Positions 50,218-64,000 of a stretch of DNA of 64,000 nucleotides are shown here, one piece after another. The stretch covers positions 111,347 through 175,346 of the forward strand of contig JAIOSV010000089.1 of NCBI GenBank assembly GCA_021107435.1, read 5' to 3'. Each line of letters opens with the position of its first letter. Positions within the stretch are counted from its first letter, which is position 1. Under the pieces are notes generated by a model that was not told where the DNA came from, ran no database searches, and was given only the letters and a program-made list of their open reading frames with translations. A program made the translations under genes and the position numbers. The DNA comes from Candidatus Sabulitectum sp. GTDB taxonomy: Bacteria > Fermentibacterota > Fermentibacteria > Fermentibacterales > JCC-6.

Positions 50218-50985
50218 ATGCATCTGTTGTATCTTGATGACTCTGGATCAGCCCCGAATAGGAATGAGCAATACTTCATCCTTGGGGGACTCTCAGTTTT
50301 TGAAGCTCAAGCACATTGGTTCACTAAAGAGCTAGACACGCTTGCTGAAAGCATTGACCCAAAGAATCCACAGAGTGTTGAATTTCATGCTTCAGAAATA
50401 TTCTCTCGAAGAAACGCACCTTGGAAAGGTATGAGCCGTGAGGAAGCAAAAGGTATTATCAAGTCAGTTTTAAAAATACTTGCTGGTTCATACGATAGTG
50501 CCAGAGCATTTGCTTGTATCGTTCACAAGGACTCTTACCCTGGGCGAGATCCAGTTGAATTGGCATTCGAGGATCTTTGCAGTCGTTTTGATATATATCT
50601 TTCCAATCTTCGTGATTCTGGAGACCGTCAGCGTGGTCTCTTGATTCTGGATGAGTCGGCTCATGAAACATCATTGCAAGGCATGGCAAGAGATTTTCGT
50701 ACGCTTGGTACAAGGTGGGGAGTTCTTCGAAACCTTGCTGACACTCCTTTCTTCGTCAACTCAAAAGCTTCCCGACTTGTTCAGATGGCAGACCACATAG
50801 CGTATGCAACATTTCGCCGATATCAAATGTGTGATGCTCAATACTTTGATATTATATCAAGTAAGTTTCACAGTGTTGGTGGCGTTATTCATGGACTTTC
50901 TCACAAAGAAAACGAGAATCCCGAGTGCATGTGTATTGCCTGTTTAAGTCGTCGCCTCTCAGGTGGTCGTGTTCCCACTGAATAA
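50218..50985 (+). CDS. DUF3800 family protein
   Basis: N-terminus MHLLYLDDSGS is typical of the DUF3800 family. It sits between repeats A and B. Confidence 0.6.
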   Translation: MHLLYLDDSGSAPNRNEQYFILGGLSVFEAQAHWFTKELDTLAESIDPKNPQSVEFHASEIFSRRNAPWKGMSREEAKGIIKSVLKILAGSYDSARAFACIVHKDSYPGRDPVELAFEDLCSRFDIYLSNLRDSGDRQRGLLILDESAHETSLQGMARDFRTLGTRWGVLRNLADTPFFVNSKASRLVQMADHIAYATFRRYQMCDAQYFDIISSKFHSVGGVIHGLSHKENENPECMCIACLSRRLSGGRVPTE

Positions 50986-51131: not shown

Positions 51132-52382
51132 CTATAATCGCAATACCTTTTTCAGATCCTCATGCTCGAACGCCGATGACATGCGCTCTATCTCTGAAGT
51201 TGACAACCCATAGCTCTGCGCTACACTACGCCACTCTGCGATTGCTGCCGCAATGACTCGAACATAATCTTTTGCCCTTGCAGGGCTTACATCAAAATAA
51301 TCAGCTACCTCAAATGCTAACTCAATTGAAGCAGTTTGATCATCTATATCAATGGCTGAAGATAGAATTCTTGGAGCCAGGTCTGTTGGAGTAGGGTTGA
51401 GGTCGTAGGCTGGAGATAAAATCCATCCCTCCCTCCCATAGTATAGAAATCCATGATTTCTCATGTGATCATCTATGTTGGAGATCAAGACAGTTACAAC
51501 AATCCTTTTCCATAGTTCATGCATGTCTTTCTTCGGAAACGCTCCGTGGCTTCTGATTTTATCTGCGAGCTCAAGGTAGCTGTGTACTTCATTATCTTTC
51601 GCGGAAATCATACTCATGCCTGATAAAAAAGGAATTCTTACTTTCCCTTTTCTATCAAAACGTTTCAGAATCAGTATGTCCCTGCCGTTAATTGACCTAA
51701 GGCTTCTTTCAGGCACTCTGATCCCTGACCGCTCTGCCAGGTCAAGAGCGATTGCTTCCCAGACGATTCGATTATGGTCATCAACATTATTCGGGAATTT
51801 AGCTATGAAAAGCTGAGAGTCTTTCTGCACCGATGCTTTTGGCTGAGCACCACCCAAAGAAGAACCGGGAGCAAGAAGCAACCTGAGGTCTTCACTTGTT
51901 TCTTCTTCTTGTAACAGCTTATCTGAAGCCGCAAGTAGTCTTGGAAGATCAACTAAAGGAGGAATGCTGTTTCTAGTACTTTTTGCCAGGAAGGGACCAC
52001 CCTCCGATAAAGAAAATCTCAGAGCACCCATGCGGGTTTCATCATTTACCCCAAGCAGGTAGTCAATTTCTCTTAATGTGCGAGGAGTTCTACCTTCTGC
52101 TTTATCAGTTCTTCGAGCGAATCGTCGCATAAGAATTCGACCCCATCTATCGGGAGCAGAATCCCCAATTGTGCCAAAGATTGATAAACCAATTCCCGTA
52201 TGGTATGGTTCTTCCTTGACTGACAAAGCTGGTTCGAGAGCAAAACAAGATGGAGATTGCATCCAAGACCGGGCATATTCAAATGTTGCACTCTCTCTTC
52301 GTCCTCGAATGTGTATCCACAAATGACCTACATGGTGTGCGTGTCCTTCCAGGTCAATGTATACGAAAACTGACTTTCCCAT
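51132..52382 (-). CDS. hipA: type II toxin HipA-family serine/threonine kinase
   Basis: HipA N-terminal domain (VFVYIDLEG...GDSAPDRWGR) and C-terminal catalytic motif NIDDHMRNHGF. Confidence 0.85.
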   Translation of the reverse strand: MGKSVFVYIDLEGHAHHVGHLWIHIRGRRESATFEYARSWMQSPSCFALEPALSVKEEPYHTGIGLSIFGTIGDSAPDRWGRILMRRFARRTDKAEGRTPRTLREIDYLLGVNDETRMGALRFSLSEGGPFLAKSTRNSIPPLVDLPRLLAASDKLLQEEETSEDLRLLLAPGSSLGGAQPKASVQKDSQLFIAKFPNNVDDHNRIVWEAIALDLAERSGIRVPERSLRSINGRDILILKRFDRKGKVRIPFLSGMSMISAKDNEVHSYLELADKIRSHGAFPKKDMHELWKRIVVTVLISNIDDHMRNHGFLYYGREGWILSPAYDLNPTPTDLAPRILSSAIDIDDQTASIELAFEVADYFDVSPARAKDYVRVIAAAIAEWRSVAQSYGLSTSEIERMSSAFEHEDLKKVLRL

Positions 52383-57653: not shown

Positions 57654-58505
57654 CTAATTTATGGGCAGGTAGCCCTCAGCAGCAACTATTGCCTGACCGT
57701 CTTCACCCAGTATGAACTCAAGCCATTCTGCAACTGCACCGGTGGGCTCTCCGTAAGTAACCATGTTCAGGGGTCTTACCACTGGATAGCTGCCTTCGTT
57801 AACGTTTTCAGGAGTGGGGAAAGCTCCATCGATAGCGATTGGTTTTGTGCTGTCATCAAGATATCCAAAGCTGATGAAAGTTATTGATCCCGGCGTTGTA
57901 ACCACAGTTGTGCGGATAGCTCCATTGGAAGGCTGAAGAATAGCGGTTGCACTGATGAACGCATCCTCCATCACGAGATCCTCAAAAGCTGAACGGGTAC
58001 CGGAACCCTCTTCACGGGAAGCTACTGTTATTATCCCGGGAGTTCCACCGACTTCGCTCCAGTCCGTGATCTCTCCGGCAAAAATCGCTCTTGCCTCATC
58101 AATACTGAGTTCATCAACATCAACATCGGGGTTAACCACGATGGCTATACCATCGCGGGCAATTGTGTGGATTACTATTTCCGGGCACTCTTGAATCTCA
58201 CTGGCTTTGATCTCTCTGGATGCCATACCGATGTCGGCGCTCTGCTCTGAGGCGCTCTTTACGCCAACGCTGCTGCCACCGCCGCTGACGGTGACAAGTA
58301 CATTGGGATCAATCGCTTCATAAGCCTCACTGAGAAGCTCTGCAAGGGGCTGAACAGTCGTGGAACCGACCACACTGATCTCTACTGTTTCAACGGCCTC
58401 AGTACTTGTCCCGTCTGCATCCGGTGTTTCTACTCCCGGCTCACCGCAGGCACCAAGAAGCATCATTGAGGTCATGACAATCATTGTTGTTATTTTTCTT
58501 TTCAT
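57654..58505 (-). CDS. pstS: phosphate-binding protein PstS (lipoprotein)
   Basis: Signal peptide plus LLGACG lipobox. GSTTVQP...GSGT motifs are those of the PstS family. Confidence 0.85.
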   Translation of the reverse strand: MKRKITTMIVMTSMMLLGACGEPGVETPDADGTSTEAVETVEISVVGSTTVQPLAELLSEAYEAIDPNVLVTVSGGGSSVGVKSASEQSADIGMASREIKASEIQECPEIVIHTIARDGIAIVVNPDVDVDELSIDEARAIFAGEITDWSEVGGTPGIITVASREEGSGTRSAFEDLVMEDAFISATAILQPSNGAIRTTVVTTPGSITFISFGYLDDSTKPIAIDGAFPTPENVNEGSYPVVRPLNMVTYGEPTGAVAEWLEFILGEDGQAIVAAEGYLPIN

Positions 58506-58528: not shown

Positions 58529-59575
58529 TTAAAACTTCATTCTCCAGCCGAAGTACATGTCGGTGTGACTATCTTCATCATCACTCTGGAAGGTGTGATT
58601 ACGCATACCGATCTGTACAGTGTTCTTACTGCTGTAGAGGTCCATGTTGAGGCAGAAGTCGATGGCTCCTTCATCATTTTCCGGGTCATCATCACCACTG
58701 TATCCGGGATTGATGTTTTCATAACGAATCGCAGGTCTGACAGCCTGAAGCATATTCCCGTCAAGATCGAAATCTGCCATGAGAGTAACTGCATAACCGT
58801 TAGTGTCTGTCCAGTCGGAATCATCCTCCATGGGTTCACCAATTGTCATGTACTCGCCAACAAAAAACAGCTCAGTGCTTTCGCTGAGAGAGTGGTTTAC
58901 CACTGTGTAGAAATCCATAGCTGTAGCGGAAACGGAAGTTTCACCTGTTGAATCAGCATTCTCGGAGTGACTGCCGAAAGCTCCTGCAATCTGAATGCCC
59001 TCGACTGGCTCAACAACTGCACGGGCTGTAAAACTCTTGTGGCTGTCGTCTTCAGGCTCGTTGTCTCCTGCTCCATTGGTATAAGCCAGATCAATATCTG
59101 CGATTCCGAAGTCCAGCTCCACATTCGCGCCGATGTCCCGCTTGCCGAAGTCACCAATCATGCCAGTAAGCATCGCACGGTCCCGGAAGTACATGCTGCT
59201 GCTTGAACGTGTGTAGTTGTAGCAGAAAGGTCTCTTAAAATGACCCATGGAGAAAGTGACCACATCGCTGAAATGCATGTTGATAGCAATATCCTCAGTA
59301 GTCAGACTGAGATCCTCATAGCTCCCGGTGTACTTAGTGGGCTGAGACTTGAATGCAATCTTAGCATCCACCCATTCGTTCAGCCTTGGAAGCCATTCGA
59401 TGGTGGCGATAACACTGAAGCCGTTATCTGGATCAGCATCCTCTTCGCCATAGATGTTGAATGTGTTGATAAGGTAACCTTTGAACTTGAGAAGCTCGGC
59501 GCCTCCTGTGGAGAATTCGCCGCTGGCCATTGCGATGGTGGCCATGATCAGAGTGAGTATCATGATGTTACGCAA
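58529..59575 (-). CDS. outer-membrane beta-barrel porin, possibly phosphate-selective (first gene of the pst operon)
   Basis: Signal peptide and alternating beta-strand pattern. C-terminal ...YFGWRMKF ends in Phe. Lies immediately upstream of pstS. Confidence 0.55.
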   Translation of the reverse strand: MRNIMILTLIMATIAMASGEFSTGGAELLKFKGYLINTFNIYGEEDADPDNGFSVIATIEWLPRLNEWVDAKIAFKSQPTKYTGSYEDLSLTTEDIAINMHFSDVVTFSMGHFKRPFCYNYTRSSSSMYFRDRAMLTGMIGDFGKRDIGANVELDFGIADIDLAYTNGAGDNEPEDDSHKSFTARAVVEPVEGIQIAGAFGSHSENADSTGETSVSATAMDFYTVVNHSLSESTELFFVGEYMTIGEPMEDDSDWTDTNGYAVTLMADFDLDGNMLQAVRPAIRYENINPGYSGDDDPENDEGAIDFCLNMDLYSSKNTVQIGMRNHTFQSDDEDSHTDMYFGWRMKF

Positions 59576-59647
59576 TTGAAAACCCCTTTCGTTTTCAGCT
59601 CAGCCGCCGGTTGAATTACCGATGACAGTGGTAACATCGGAACGGGT

Positions 59648-59687
59648 TGTTAAGAGAGTATTTGGGAAATGTTAAGGAATTGTTAAG
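59648..59687. promoter_or_regulatory. three TGTTAAG direct repeats with 11/22-bp phasing (Pho-box-like response-regulator site)
   Basis: TGTTAAG at 59648, 59670 and 59681. Located 70-115 nt upstream of the porin-pst operon and ~100 nt upstream of the divergent membrane-protein gene. Confidence 0.3.
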
Positions 59688-59778
59688 CCGGAATATGGAA
59701 CTTGACTCAATTGAGCATGCACGTATATTAGTCTAGTCTAACTTTATCGTTCCTGCTCCAGCGGAAAGTACACCACAA

Positions 59779-60423
59779 ATGAAAGAAAGGTTAAACCCTG
59801 TGAAAAACAACTTCTGGCGAACATTTCTGCTTACTCTCGCCTTCTTTGGTGGATTGTACATGCTCCTTGTTTTTTCAGAGCGGATTTCTTACGATCTTTA
59901 CGACATAGTAGGATGGGGCACCGGCCTGATCTCCGTTGCCGCACTGATGCTGACCAGCAGGAAAGGGTGGAGCCGGTTTACAGCCAACATGCAGGGAATA
60001 GTTTCCGGTCTTTTCCTCTGGGGCTTCATCGGCGAATTCATGGAGGTAAAATACGGTCTGGTAGTTGCGGCATCCTCCTTCCTGCCGATACTGGCAGTGT
60101 TTGTAATCCTCTTCGTCGTGGTCCGTCGCGGAAAGCAGCTTGCGATACCCACAGCTTTTGCAGCCGGACATTTCCTGGGTATCTGGGGGCTTCACATGTG
60201 GATGATCTACCAGTTCGAGCACCTCAGCAGAACTCACTGGAGTACATACCTCTCAGCTGCTGTCGCGCTTCTTTTCGGCACAGCAGCCGTGATTCTCGGC
60301 AAAAAAAGCGAGAAGCTTAACAGGAAGATGGCACTTGCGCTGACAGCACTTCTGCTTCTCTGGACCGTTCTGGAGTATGTGTGGGGCTGGAGACTGATAC
60401 CCGGGCCCTACTCCATGGGTTAG
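59779..60423 (+). CDS. hypothetical polytopic membrane protein
   Basis: Five to six TM helices. Its 3' end (60283-60423) is duplicated at 62541-62679. Confidence 0.45.
   Translation: MKERLNPVKNNFWRTFLLTLAFFGGLYMLLVFSERISYDLYDIVGWGTGLISVAALMLTSRKGWSRFTANMQGIVSGLFLWGFIGEFMEVKYGLVVAASSFLPILAVFVILFVVVRRGKQLAIPTAFAAGHFLGIWGLHMWMIYQFEHLSRTHWSTYLSAAVALLFGTAAVILGKKSEKLNRKMALALTALLLLWTVLEYVWGWRLIPGPYSMG
60358..60423 (+). repeat. 66-bp perfect direct repeat (left copy) = 3' end of the membrane-protein gene including its stop
   Basis: ctctggaccgttctggagtatgtgtggggctggagactgatacccgggccctactccatgggttag is identical to 62614-62679. A further ~75 nt upstream are ~80% identical between the two copies. Confidence 0.8.
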
Positions 60424-60577
60424 AATTCCTCCAAACCTGCCTGGATGACAGTGACTGCAAGACGTCCGGGCAGGCGAGGAGGAAGTCCTCAACAGGACTT
60501 CTGCGCTTTCAAACAGGCGGCTTTCGTAACCTTCCCCATCAGTATTGATTCACGCACTTGAAAACCGGCGGATTCTA

Positions 60578-60757
60578 TCAGAGCAATCAATTCCCCTGCT
60601 CCAGGATTCCGGCTGTTTTGGGGACGGCAATCCCTACACTCTCAGGTAGCAAATCAGCATATTCAGCTTTGCTGGAAAATGAGGAACGGCCTTTCATGGA
60701 GGAGGCGGATTTCTCTTCAGTTAGAGCTTCCTGAATAACAGCTTTGTCTTCAGGCAT
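60578..60757 (-). CDS. possible small ORF (59 aa) downstream of the orphan gene
   Basis: MPEDKAVIQEALTEEKSASSMKGRSSFSSKAEYADLLPESVGIAVPKTAGILEQGN, with a TAAGGA SD 5 nt upstream. Not in the ORF track because it is under 60 aa. It could be spurious. Confidence 0.25.
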
Positions 60758-60837
60758 ATCCTTAGTTGAATAGTTTACCGTAACATCCGCCAGTTATGCT
60801 ATTCCTGGATCAGCCATTTCCCCTTTCCCGTATCGCT

Positions 60838-62286
60838 TTAGGATCTCTTTATCTCCATATCAATATCATTTAGCTGTTTTTCAGTGGTTTTCAGGCTTTC
60901 CCGGAGAAGTGCCAGAACCTGATCCTTTGATTTTCTGCTTCTCTCTGGATCATTCTCTATGGAGTTGAATATGTCTCTGGTGTTCTCGATGTCTGAAATA
61001 TGACTTTCCTTCAAGCTGAGAAGGTACATTCTGTTTGACTTTCTGCGGTCACGCAAGCGGTGGTTCTTTCTTATAAACATGTAGATCACGGGCATAAGAC
61101 ATAGAACCAGTGCAGCTGTTATTTTCGTCATTACAGATATGCCGGGAGCCAGTATTGCACCCAGCAGCGGAATGGACATTGCTAGAAAGGAAAGAAGCAT
61201 TATCCTTTCATTGCCCTTTTCTGTTTCCTTCTGAAGGATATGCTCGTCATGTGCTTTTCCGGGAGTGGTCAAGTTTTCAAGGGAGTATTTTATGTGGTCC
61301 ATATTCTTCAGAAGATTTTCTCGGTTTTCATGGTAGCCTTTCCTGTGCTTATCTATATAATTCTCCTCAAGCTCCGGGGATGAGATCTCATCTATCTGAT
61401 GCAGCATGCTTACGGTTGCTGCATAGAAGTCGAGATAATTCAGATCCCACACTTCAAGTTTATTTCTCAACTTATTCCAGTAGATTCTGTTCTTCTCGTT
61501 CAGATTCCTTTTAATGTATTTTGCTTGAGACCTTACTTTATCCAACCATTTGATAAGCATCTCATTGTAGAATTTGAAAAATGCCTTCCTGTATATATGC
61601 TGTCTTAAATAATGCAGAAATTCTTCTTCACACCCATAGCAGTAGTATGAATTTCCTCTCTTTATTACTTCTCCTTTAATCACAATTTCCTGTTTGATCC
61701 CGGAGTCGTCAGGAATACCTTCCTTCATCCCGATTATTACTGAACATTTCTCCACATGTCCCTGAACCAACAGGAATGTTTCATCCCCAAGAAAATAGGT
61801 GGTCAGCATAACCAGCTGCTTCACAGTTTTGTGAATATTCATCTGAGCGTTATCATCAAGGATATTTATATCAGACATTCTGAGAGTAATGGAAGCAAAC
61901 TGCATTGCTTTGAAGAAGAAACTCCAACTGTACTGCATGAGGGGATCCTCATGTCTTTCACCATTTACTACAAACACAAGTTTTTCCGAAACGAAATTGC
62001 TGGATTTGAAACGCACCGGAATGCTTTCTGCTTCAAAGCACACCTCGAAGATGATAATGCCCGTGGGGAACAGGAAGACATTCAGCTGAAAATCGATTTC
62101 TGAACCATGTTCGTCCGGTAAGATCTTTCCCCGTGATAGTCCCGAAAGGAGGATCCCTTCGATCCTCTTGTTAAGCTTAACACTTTCTGTTCTTACCTCG
62201 GGGTCTGCCTCCTGGATCTTTCTGGTCAGTTTAGATACTTCGATCTCACCGGAGATAGAAATTGTGAAATATCGGTTGATTCTCAT
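60838..62286 (-). CDS. orphan hypothetical protein, 482 aa, with a C-proximal two-helix membrane hairpin; AT-rich gene inside the insertion
   Basis: No recognisable motifs. Hydrophobic helices at ~LLSFLAMSIPLLGAILAPGISV and ~ITAALVLCLMPVIYMFI, followed by a charged ~100-aa tail. GC is visibly lower (~40%) than the flanks. Confidence 0.5.
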   Translation of the reverse strand: MRINRYFTISISGEIEVSKLTRKIQEADPEVRTESVKLNKRIEGILLSGLSRGKILPDEHGSEIDFQLNVFLFPTGIIIFEVCFEAESIPVRFKSSNFVSEKLVFVVNGERHEDPLMQYSWSFFFKAMQFASITLRMSDINILDDNAQMNIHKTVKQLVMLTTYFLGDETFLLVQGHVEKCSVIIGMKEGIPDDSGIKQEIVIKGEVIKRGNSYYCYGCEEEFLHYLRQHIYRKAFFKFYNEMLIKWLDKVRSQAKYIKRNLNEKNRIYWNKLRNKLEVWDLNYLDFYAATVSMLHQIDEISSPELEENYIDKHRKGYHENRENLLKNMDHIKYSLENLTTPGKAHDEHILQKETEKGNERIMLLSFLAMSIPLLGAILAPGISVMTKITAALVLCLMPVIYMFIRKNHRLRDRRKSNRMYLLSLKESHISDIENTRDIFNSIENDPERSRKSKDQVLALLRESLKTTEKQLNDIDMEIKRS

Positions 62287-62613
62287 TAATTCCTCCCATT
62301 GCCGGGACTTATTATAAGGACAGTTGATTTCTCATCATATCAGATTCAACTCCTGATATCTTTTCTGTTTACTTTCTCTCAGTTTCTTCATCTGAAGCCA
62401 AGGATACCATCAGAAATATTCCCGGTCAACGTGATGGTCAACTGATATTCATACTAAACCCTGCATAAGGGCACACCGCCCCCTTCGATACCGAATCGCT
62501 GAAAACTCCTACAGCCTCGATCCCGGAAAACCAGCATTGCCACCCTCCTCTTCGGCAGGAAAAGCGAGAAACTGAACAGAAAAATGGCACTTGCAGTGAC
62601 CGCCCTTCTACTC

Positions 62614-62679
62614 CTCTGGACCGTTCTGGAGTATGTGTGGGGCTGGAGACTGATACCCGGGCCCTACTCCATGGGTTAG
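62614..62679 (+). repeat. 66-bp perfect direct repeat (right copy); part of a 140-bp gene-3'-end remnant (62541-62679)
   Basis: The remnant translates in frame to LFGRKSEKLNRKMALAVTALLLLWTVLEYVWGWRLIPGPYSMG*. This is a diverged copy of the C-terminus of the 59779..60423 gene. Confidence 0.8.
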
Positions 62680-63037
62680 GAACTCTATTCCAGAAAATTT
62701 GCGATATTAACCAGCAAGCCTTTTGAAAATCTTGAAATAGATCGAAAATGGGTTTCCTGTTTTGTGGAATGGTGCAACGATGTTCATAGTCAAGTGCTAA
62801 ATGGTGAATAGAAGGATCTCCTGGAGAATAGAATCAAGGTTCATAAAGCTGCAAGGGCAAGAAACCTGAACTCTGGTCCCAAAAAAACAAGGAATTGGAA
62901 GCCAGTGATAGAAGTCTGGCTGAATCCTCCCCAGGAACACATAGTAAGCAATAATATTGATAGAAAAGGAGCTTTTAATCTCAGCATTAAATCAAAATAG
63001 CGGCGCATTATACCGACACTTATTGCCTGACAGGGTA

Positions 63038-64000
63038 CTAGTAACCAATCACCAAAACTTTATTGTCATACCAGCTTGCCACATACACATACTCCCCGGA
63101 GGGTAGTGAGCAGATATCCATGTTACGATTTCCTATTCCGATTGAATCAACTATCGTATTGTCCGACGTACGAATGACTGAAATGCTACCATAAATGCGT
63201 GATACATATACAAACTCCCCGGAGGGTAGTGAGCAGATGCCCGAGGGCCAGGTAACTTCGGAGCCCATATCGATTGATGCTTCTACTGTGTTATCCGATG
63301 TACGAATGACGACGATCTTCTCATTGTAAATACAATCACTTATAACATAAACATATTCTCCAGAGGGCAATGAACAGATTCTGTCGATCTCTCCTTCTAT
63401 ATCGAGTGAAGCGAAGATTGTATTATCCGATGTTCTAATAACAGAGAGATTATCAGAATCAAAACCAGTAGTAACATATACATACTCCCCGGAGGGTAGA
63501 GAGCAGATGCCATGTGTATCTTTACCCACATCGACTGTGGCCACAACAACATTATCTGATGTACGAATAACTGAAACAGCATCTTTTTCTGCTACATACA
63601 CATACTCCCCAGAGGGAAGAGAGCAGATGAAACCCGGGGATTCTCCTACATCGATTGTGGCAACTACTGTGTTACTCGATGTTCTTATAACAGAGACATT
63701 GTTGCTGCTTGGATTTGTGACATACAAATACTCCCCCGAGGGAAGTACGCAGATTGCACTCGGGCTATATCCTGAATTCACTGTAGCTACTACCGTGTTA
63801 TCCGACGTACGAATGACCAGAACAATGCCACCACTACCACTTGTAACGTAGACATACTCTCCAGAGGGAAGAGCACAAAGCTTATTGGGGCTGCAACTGA
63901 GATTAATTGTCGCAATCAGAGAATCAGGGAATTGTTTTTGCTCTGAGATCGCAAACTCATCACTCCAGCCGGTATTGCTACTGGTATCTTCTATTCTAAT
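63038..64000 (-). CDS. YVTN-family beta-propeller repeat protein (5' end beyond window)
   Basis: Six or more tandem ~43-aa units (ICSLPSGEYVYV...VSVIRTSDNTVVATIDVG). The frame stays open with no stop from 63781 to 64000. The track start at 63781 is an internal GTG. Confidence 0.7.
   Translation of the reverse strand: MRIEDTSSNTGWSDEFAISEQKQFPDSLIATINLSCSPNKLCALPSGEYVYVTSGSGGIVLVIRTSDNTVVATVNSGYSPSAICVLPSGEYLYVTNPSSNNVSVIRTSSNTVVATIDVGESPGFICSLPSGEYVYVAEKDAVSVIRTSDNVVVATVDVGKDTHGICSLPSGEYVYVTTGFDSDNLSVIRTSDNTIFASLDIEGEIDRICSLPSGEYVYVISDCIYNEKIVVIRTSDNTVEASIDMGSEVTWPSGICSLPSGEFVYVSRIYGSISVIRTSDNTIVDSIGIGNRNMDICSLPSGEYVYVASWYDNKVLVIGY

Follow-up and report, generated by a model that had tools for sequence, protein, structure and literature searches.

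The window analyzed here, a 64,000-nt stretch of Candidatus Sabulitectum sp. (contig JAIOSV010000089.1 of assembly GCA_021107435.1, positions 111,347 to 175,346), carries near its right end an islet of 2,256 bp (2.26 kb) with one cargo gene, inserted at the last codon of a conserved membrane-protein gene that we call gene X. The islet is bounded by direct repeats of the end of gene X and is present in some assembled alleles of the locus and precisely missing from another. The features of the locus are as follows.

59779 to 60423, plus strand: gene X (K8S62_11055), a conserved polytopic membrane protein of 207 to 214 amino acids and the insertion target; the start of its orthologues corresponds to the GTG at 59800.
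60280 to 60423, plus strand: left copy of the repeat (attL-like), consisting of a host-type arm (60280 to 60357) and the core; the same arm is found in the empty-site contig L004.
60358 to 60423, plus strand: core, identical in both copies (0 of 22 codons changed), which encodes LWTVLEYVWGWRLIPGPYSMG and the stop codon and holds the recombination point.
60424 to 60837, no strand assigned: left non-coding end of the islet, which holds a non-conserved 56-aa open reading frame (ORF) at 60587 to 60757, minus strand.
60838 to 62286, minus strand: cargo gene (K8S62_11060), 482 aa, with a GGAGG ribosome-binding site 6 nt upstream of its ATG.
62287 to 62535, minus strand: upstream region of the cargo gene, with one sigma-70-like match (62429 to 62401, a consensus match alone) and without homology to X or other loci.
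62536 to 62679, plus strand: right copy of the repeat (attR-like), a fragment of a diverged X orthologue (62536 to 62613) fused to the core (62614 to 62679) and followed by the chromosomal right flank.
62680 to 64000, minus strand: chromosomal right flank, contiguous with X in the empty allele.

A first-pass annotation of this DNA had described a repeat of about 140 nt at the end of gene X, which was borne out as 144 nt: the last 47 codons of X and its stop codon recur at 62536 to 62679. Repeat finding returned the pair 60296 to 60423 and 62552 to 62679, which is 128 nt long, 91% identical, and spaced by 2256 (blastn E ~1e-45). Over the terminal 66 nt, that is, 22 codons including the TAG, there is no mismatch between the copies, and the identity ends right after the stop codon. 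A 32-nt piece of this core was scanned against the 64-kb window and occurs twice, with 0 occurrences expected by chance. The 20 codons located 5′ of the core carry 12 nucleotide differences, resulting in nine synonymous codons plus one K-to-R and one L-to-V replacement. The six codons located 5′ of these are ~50% diverged, with the right copy still X-like there against orthologues, and beyond those six codons the copies are dissimilar, with 1 of 20 codons identical. The right copy shows 81% identity to the X gene of a sister Sabulitectum species (L027) over 143 nt starting at 62536, which traces it back to approximately that position. Since the sequences 3′ of the left copy and 3′ of the right copy are unrelated, the structure is not a tandem duplication, in agreement with the earlier claim of an insertion. 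We also observed that an in-frame ATG is kept in the right repeat, so that 62584 to 62679 could encode a putative 31-aa peptide with a single transmembrane (TM) segment (MALAVTALLLLWTVLEYVWGWRLIPGPYSMG), whose length and register match those of an orphan ORF in contig L046, described below.

Next, allele contigs were collected by exact-protein look-up followed by blastn, and a scan of JGI metagenomes with the core sequence added contig L047. Besides the assembly of the window itself, the occupied allele is present in three independent assemblies: the source metagenome-assembled genome (MAG); contig L001 (ENA ERZ26872897, 6.65 kb), which is identical to window positions 59845 to 64000 across both junctions and continues 2.5 kb past the window; and contig L047, which contains the occupied left junction in a strain 99.8% identical to the window, with all 9 mismatches in the chromosomal flank. 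The empty site envisaged in the first-pass annotation exists as well. Positions 1 to 1606 of contig L004 (ENA ERZ26872904, 2.45 kb, 3.8x coverage) correspond to window positions 58818 to 60423 and positions 1607 to 2452 to 62680 to 63525, both with 100% identity, and the intact gene X, with an arm of the left-copy (host) type, runs straight into the right flank. The islet is an insertion/deletion polymorphism, with filled and precisely empty versions of the site occurring between flanks that are otherwise the same. The host-type arm is retained in the empty allele, which places the point of exchange within the 66-nt block; the L004 junction demands a crossover to the right of 60357.

Two further contigs from Logan, L002 (SRR15668622) and L003 (SRR15668619), are each 2286 nt long, corresponding to 2256 + 30 nt, and have a 30-nt terminal repeat. 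Logan contigs are built on 31-mers, and such a terminal repeat is the criterion used by its authors for circular contigs (PMC12424806). The breakpoints of both contigs lie exactly at the core edges, implying graph branches there, and a PstS look-up found that the flank contig of SRR15668622 ends 1 kb before X. Homologue contigs of 2.1 to 2.8 kb (L017 to L023) were considered as circular elements and rejected, as none has a terminal overlap or an internal repeat. Synteny in sister species was also discarded as a source of an empty site; L027 has no insert after X, but neither L027 nor L028 has anything except X in common with the window, in DNA or in protein, and both are uninformative. As a separate observation, positions 1 to 243 of L047 are an inverted pstC piece (window 57411 to 57169) joined to pstS at 57813, which could be a chimeric assembly or a strain rearrangement, and the same contig has six clustered substitutions in the pstS signal-peptide region.

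The divergence of the right copy is informative about its source. Nine of the 11 changed codons in the arm are synonymous, and the probability of two or fewer non-synonymous changes under neutral decay (~75% non-synonymous) is P = 1.3e-4. Since the changes are nine synonymous and two conservative, the right arm was shaped inside a working X of a related lineage, and the right copy is a fragment of that lineage's functional gene and not a decaying local duplicate. The arm on the far side is thus foreign in the sense of the element-derived arm that had been proposed. Given the arm divergence, the invariance of the core has P = 2e-8 per codon, or 4e-5 over the 17 degenerate codons alone. The right fragment has the variable peptide KSEKLNRK in common with the host allele, and I-A-x-L-L-x-G-R and A-V-T in common with other Sabulitectum X proteins; therefore, its source is an unsampled close relative. 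No X allele with the right-copy arm was found among 65 homologues. The window X and the L027 X are 83% identical overall, yet they have a 56-nt perfect run in common (60349 to 60404; L027 6556 to 6611), which overlaps the core; the next longest perfect run between the two is 25 nt, and L028 has nothing similar. This run is suggestive, and no more than that, of an exchange of the X 3′ end between lineages. Nucleotide-level constraint at the X 3′ end may be an alternative cause of the run.

The same bracketed geometry is found at another target gene. On contig L005 (5704 to 5787 and 9141 to 9221; same in L006 and L007), a 56%-identical homologue of the cargo lies behind thrC together with a gene for a 542-aa type IX secretion system (T9SS) beta-propeller, and both are bracketed by thrC and a thrC pseudo-fragment. 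The fragment encodes 18 aa (LLIEPHGSIGWAGL...), 78% identical to thrC residues 370 to 387 and ~80% identical at the DNA level. The thrC site is a second, older case of the bracketed geometry. Fragment duplications of neighboring genes were also looked for around the homologues in L008, L010, and L012, and none were found.

To describe the islet content, its ORFs were compared with Pfam, NCBIfam, PADLOC, and PHROGs, and neither a recombinase nor a transposase, Rep protein, or relaxase was found in them. The previously claimed lack of an integrase in the element was confirmed, and the large ORFs of the 64-kb window and of the 2.5 kb that follow it were likewise free of recombinase domains. The annotated 482-aa ORF is present, and the ORF annotated as 59 aa is actually the 56-aa ORF listed above, which neither tblastn nor blastn could match to a related locus and which belongs to no family of the four databases. 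When the non-coding islet DNA (660 nt) was translated in all six frames, no remnants of integrase, relaxase, or other mobile-element genes were seen, and this DNA has no match elsewhere. Repeat finding did not detect terminal inverted repeats in the islet, and an Rfam search returned nothing. Relatives of the cargo family were found on no IMG/VR viral contig, PLSDB plasmid (tblastn, 72,556), or GenBank phage. The element-specific part has a GC content of 42.9%, compared with 47.4 ± 2.5% in windows of the same size (8.5th percentile), and its tetranucleotide distance is within the top 4% of windows. The islet had been called visibly AT-rich, which is only weakly true; the GC content at third codon positions (GC3) of the cargo gene is 0.487, typical of the host, and the right flank is as AT-rich as the islet. 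A mildly deviant composition with a host-like GC3 would agree with a donor from within the clade.

Our best reading is a minimal islet that carries a probable membrane-acting effector and comes and goes by recombination within the 66-nt block, driven by host homologous recombination or by an integrase acting in trans. Tentatively, we favor present-day gain and loss by Campbell-type homologous recombination through the 66-nt block, an explanation that we hold to be quite possible, although somewhat short of probable. A 2,256-bp circle with one hybrid X fragment would loop out via the 66-nt identical blocks by means of host RecA and would re-enter X through the same homology, and repeated crossovers at differing points would generate the mosaic of 0%, 18%, and ~50% divergence. 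To pass from cell to cell, the islet would depend on a vehicle from outside, for example, transformation, vesicles, or a helper element. P and P′ arms are not exchanged between host and element by an integrase, so that this mosaic better fits homologous crossovers. The first-pass annotation had proposed site-specific integration with a perfect crossover core; the 66-nt identical core and the precise ends stand, whereas the mosaic is more easily obtained by homologous crossovers. Several points weigh against our preferred explanation. Homologous recombination leaves the first origin of the 144-nt duplication unexplained, and an insert placed right at a stop codon, with the 3′ end of the gene duplicated, is the footprint that integrase-borne elements classically leave; moreover, the integrase search covered only the window and the 2.5 kb beyond it. 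The allele states come from assembled contigs, and the empty allele is a single contig at 3.8x. The core, at 66 nt, is longer than k = 31 (the k-mer length), so that an integrated copy also gives cyclic Logan contigs, and a de Bruijn graph at that k cannot separate a circle plus an empty site from an integrated copy. The compositional signal is also weak.

The classic footprint would be accounted for if an integrase-bearing element, such as an integrative and conjugative element (ICE), an integrative and mobilizable element (IME), or a prophage, had decayed to attL, cargo, and attR and were now moved in trans by a cognate tyrosine integrase, supplied from another part of the genome or by a helper element, with exchange inside the core. 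This is the main rival explanation and that of the first-pass annotation. The direct repeats contain the 3′ end of the target gene, the boundary coincides with the stop codon, the empty site is precise, and there are no recombination genes inside, which fits the published definition of a cis-mobilizable element (CIME) (PMC5704250). Such a remnant also explains the first origin of the duplication better than homologous recombination does. Nevertheless, there is no integrase in the 66 kb around the site, the non-coding islet DNA holds none of the gene remnants searched for, and the cargo relatives are on no viral contig, plasmid, or phage record. In addition, arms stay with the element in site-specific recombination, and a fragment with 0% plus 18 to 50% divergence is not predicted. 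We regard this origin as unlikely, although worth serious consideration. The polarity could also be that of e14 and phage 21 in Escherichia coli icd, in which case the islet (60280 to 62535) would have brought the left copy, the right copy would be the displaced host end (icdC-like), and L004 would not represent the ancestral state but a deletion that came later, through homologous recombination in the identical block. The icd geometry is alike in that icd reaches into the e14 prophage and a C-terminal pseudo-fragment with mostly synonymous changes stands at the far end (PMC13626634). At the thrC site, the intact thrC is on the left, a decayed fragment of it is on the right, and only 10 nt separate the thrC stop codon from the start of the cargo gene, which fits 3′ ends supplied by the element. 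This polarity is improbable, however, as the sole empty allele seen has the left-copy arm, an X allele with the right arm is absent among the 65 homologues, no integrase was found, and the identity block, which in the e14 type is at the 5′ edge, the site of the integrase crossover, is here at the 3′ end, with the 5′ edge being the most diverged part. Finally, the islet might not be mobile at all but an old fixed structure, for example, a truncated tandem X paralogue homogenized over 66 nt by gene conversion, with the empty and circular contigs being assembly effects or a one-off deletion. The core exceeds k (31 for Logan, and probably ≤55 for the SPAdes-style ENA contigs), making mis-joins and graph cycles possible; the coverage of L004 is 3.8x, the cargo GC3 is host-like, and synonymous-biased divergence also fits a paralogue that was functional before truncation. 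Yet the joining of the host arm to the right flank across the core in L004 should need read or pair support, and the assembly holding L004 gave no full 482-aa gene on exact look-up. Furthermore, gene conversion cannot reach the last base of a homology tract, two X copies were found in 0 of 20 GTDB loci, and the cargo family resides at unrelated loci in other genomes. We consider a fixed structure very improbable.

The cargo protein was modeled with AlphaFold2 (pLDDT 84, pTM 0.79). The model comprises an alpha/beta domain (residues 1 to 216), a helical bundle (220 to 355) with three long helices (220 to 339) and a helix at 341 to 355, a first TM helix (TM1, 359 to 379), a 5-residue loop, and a second TM helix (TM2) from 385 to approximately 408, which continues as a helix to residue 444 and is followed by a final helix (451 to 481). 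The 75 residues that follow TM2 form a coiled-coil tail in the model, and both termini are predicted to be cytoplasmic (N-in/C-in) by the basic stretch after TM2. A homology search returned 24 close homologues, and all of these with a source name come from Aegiribacteria or Sabulitectum MAGs; an exhaustive profile search of 1.84 billion representatives yielded 129 clusters at E≤1e-3. The family alignment shows an invariant block, N-L-x-T-P-x-x-x-H-D-E-x-x-L-Q-x-E-T-E-K-x-N-E-R-I-x-L-L-S-F-L-A-x-S-I-P-x-x-G-A, which spans the cytoplasmic helix into TM1. Pfam gave no match for 33 family members, including the most distant, and the cargo had no match in NCBIfam, PHROGs, a PDB sequence search, or BFVD.

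The only full-length Foldseek matches to the cargo model were CorA chains, with TM-scores of 0.2 to 0.35. CorA and ZntB are divalent-cation channels of the MIT superfamily, to which the CorA-type effectors of type III CRISPR systems also belong. As predicted, the cargo would have in common with them a cytoplasmic alpha/beta domain, long helices that run on into a strongly conserved TM1, an outer loop of very few residues, TM2, and termini inside. In contrast to CorA, the cargo lacks the GMN motif, having APG[IF][ST] there (conserved GAILAPG[IF]), and carries the extra coiled-coil tail. A 26-sequence CorA profile was compared with the 42-sequence profile of the cargo family, with the sequence of TmCorA verified as 100% identical to 3jcf/4i0u. 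The cargo was rejected as a CorA by sequence, given no PF01544 match, an hhalign probability of 0.14%, and no GMN motif. Judging from the model, it would resemble CorA in architecture at most, being outside the CorA family by sequence.

The cargo family occurs at six differing loci in different genomes, with no conserved partner gene. Apart from the islet and the thrC site (L005-7), homologues follow a C10/S9 peptidase pair (L008-9), are flanked by AbiEii and a TIR-STAND NTPase, past which there is a second AbiE pair (L010-11), or have Lcl_C proteins, HNH, MazG, AbiEi/AbiEii, and an SMC-like ATPase in their vicinity (L012-16), the last two being the defense-island contexts. The locus in Aegiribacteria sp. 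MLS_C (L010 4342 to 13222) is a dense defense island, in which a 481-aa homologue and a 1226-aa TIR-STAND-TPR protein stand between two inverted AbiEi/AbiEii pairs that are 30 to 35% identical. Because of the variable location, the single-gene organization, and the two defense-island contexts, our best guess is that the cargo acts as a stand-alone stress or defense effector. On the basis of the model, we infer that the cargo might oligomerize into a membrane channel or pore gated by a ligand or by stress, serving as a stand-alone stress or anti-phage effector. It had been said to have the general build of membrane-acting abortive-infection effectors, for which only the architecture and the contexts speak. 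On the opposite side, only two of the six contexts are defense islands, PADLOC-DB 2.0 gave 0 matches at E≤1 and thus no match to any defense model, Pfam, NCBIfam, and PHROGs gave none either, Foldseek returned no match at E≤1e-3, and the hhalign probability was the above-mentioned 0.14% against the CorA profile and 0.07% against TmCorA alone.

A more far-reaching proposal would make the islet a self-sufficient recombinase-free element: a 2.26-kb circle that uses a captured and continually re-homogenized X fragment as its sole "att site" and host recombination to move across Sabulitectum lineages, with a cargo that founds a new family of ligand-gated abortive-infection effectors of CorA architecture. 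The 56-nt X block common to two species would then also be accounted for. We view this proposal as a long shot.

With regard to gene X itself, 65 homologues were found in Aegiribacteria, WOR-3, Stahlbacteria, and Marinimicrobia/Neomarinimicrobiota, 20 GTDB loci were collected as well, and X belongs to no Pfam family. In the sister species (L027, 3448 to 6630), X closes a feoB-feoC-X operon, and from this arrangement X may be a Feo-associated membrane protein. Contig L046 (4208 to 6099), from an unrelated MAG, has an orphan 31-aa ORF equal to the last TM helix of X (MAWSLVLLLTSWTVLEYVWTWLLISGPYSVN) directly after feoB. This orphan fragment was rejected as a second att site, since no element adjoins it and it looks like gene decay. 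An apparent second duplication of X in the WOR-3 genome MAG095 (L032/L045) was likewise rejected, because two contigs overlap there at 96%, including the downstream flank.

To the right of the islet, the gene from 63038 to beyond 64000 (continuing in L001 2189 to 3457) encodes a YVTN/NHL beta-propeller, 422 aa long in L001, whose blades correspond to tandem DNA repeats of 120 to 141 nt with 60 to 84% identity. The rest of the window is core chromosome, with rpoB/C-sized genes, ribosomal proteins, EF-Tu, tRNAs, glycosyltransferases, and a pst operon. Between 49275 and 54157, 6 to 10 kb to the left of the site, there is a small toxin-antitoxin and accessory cluster beside a low-molecular-weight phosphatase and the pst-phoU operon. 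It contains a HipA-like kinase (51132 to 52382), a DUF3800 protein (50218 to 50985), and, according to the gene calls of L024, a VapB/PIN pair.

If the proposed explanation is true, the locus cleanly exemplifies, in nature, the smallest type of islet, with a single gene and a stretch borrowed from the target gene, segregating as presence or absence in a natural population of a phylum that has hardly been studied (Fermentibacterota/Aegiribacteria). It would lend itself well to the question of whether captured homologies of short length can replace integrases in moving accessory genes. The cargo belongs to an unannotated family of ~130 clusters with a confident predicted structure and an invariant TPxxxHDExxLQxETEKxNERIxLLSFLA motif, which makes it a candidate new membrane effector. 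No known principle is overturned, as a gene 3′ end duplicated around an insert is a classical structure.

Compared with known mobile elements, the islet is an unusually small, repeat-bounded, recombinase-less islet at a gene 3′ end, akin to CIMEs and to e14 in icd, and is thus of a known structural type. It does not have the features of an insertion sequence or transposon, as there is neither a transposase domain nor terminal inverted repeats, and the duplication is 144 nt long and diverged. Nor does it have those of a small plasmid, given no Rep domain and no tblastn match in 72,556 plasmids, with the cyclic contigs being ambiguous. A CIME is an integrated element bounded by attL/attR direct repeats, including the target gene 3′ end, without its own integration or transfer genes (PMC5704250). 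The CIMEs of Firmicutes ICE and IME families are alike in their repeat-bounded 3′-end site and in the lack of such genes; the islet contains only the 482-aa and 56-aa ORFs, with no family hits, and is flanked by 144-nt direct repeats with a 66-nt identical core, of putative att nature. Unlike CIMEs, the islet is far smaller (2.26 kb, one gene), is without evidence of ICE or IME descent, and has no helper integrase in the window or in the 2.5 kb that follow; on its far side, the repeat consists of a homologous gene fragment of 144 nt whose divergence forms a mosaic, whereas a CIME has a short identical core beside unrelated arms.

For e14 and phage 21 in E. coli icd, integration into the 3′ part of the gene is described with a duplication of the last ~50 codons, with copies that differ mainly at synonymous sites and a gene that is intact in both states (PMC13626634). 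The islet is like e14 in having a 3′ duplication of a protein-coding gene with mainly synonymous differences. Element e14 differs in being 15 kb long and encoding its own integrase. The 3′ end of its intact target gene is element-borne, and excision swaps the allele, whereas the empty and occupied alleles have the same arm at the islet. The identity block, located at the 5′ edge of the e14 duplication, is at the 3′ edge in the islet. Neither an integrase adjoining the att site nor a 5′-edge identity block was found in the islet.

The third comparison is with Campbell-type integration by a single crossover. We know of no established class of natural self-perpetuating elements of this type. Such integration leaves the insert between two hybrid copies and allows its precise loss via the longest identical stretch, with no dedicated recombinase. 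This type of integration, known from insertion-duplication constructs and from flexible islets driven by recombination, predicts the pattern of the islet described here.

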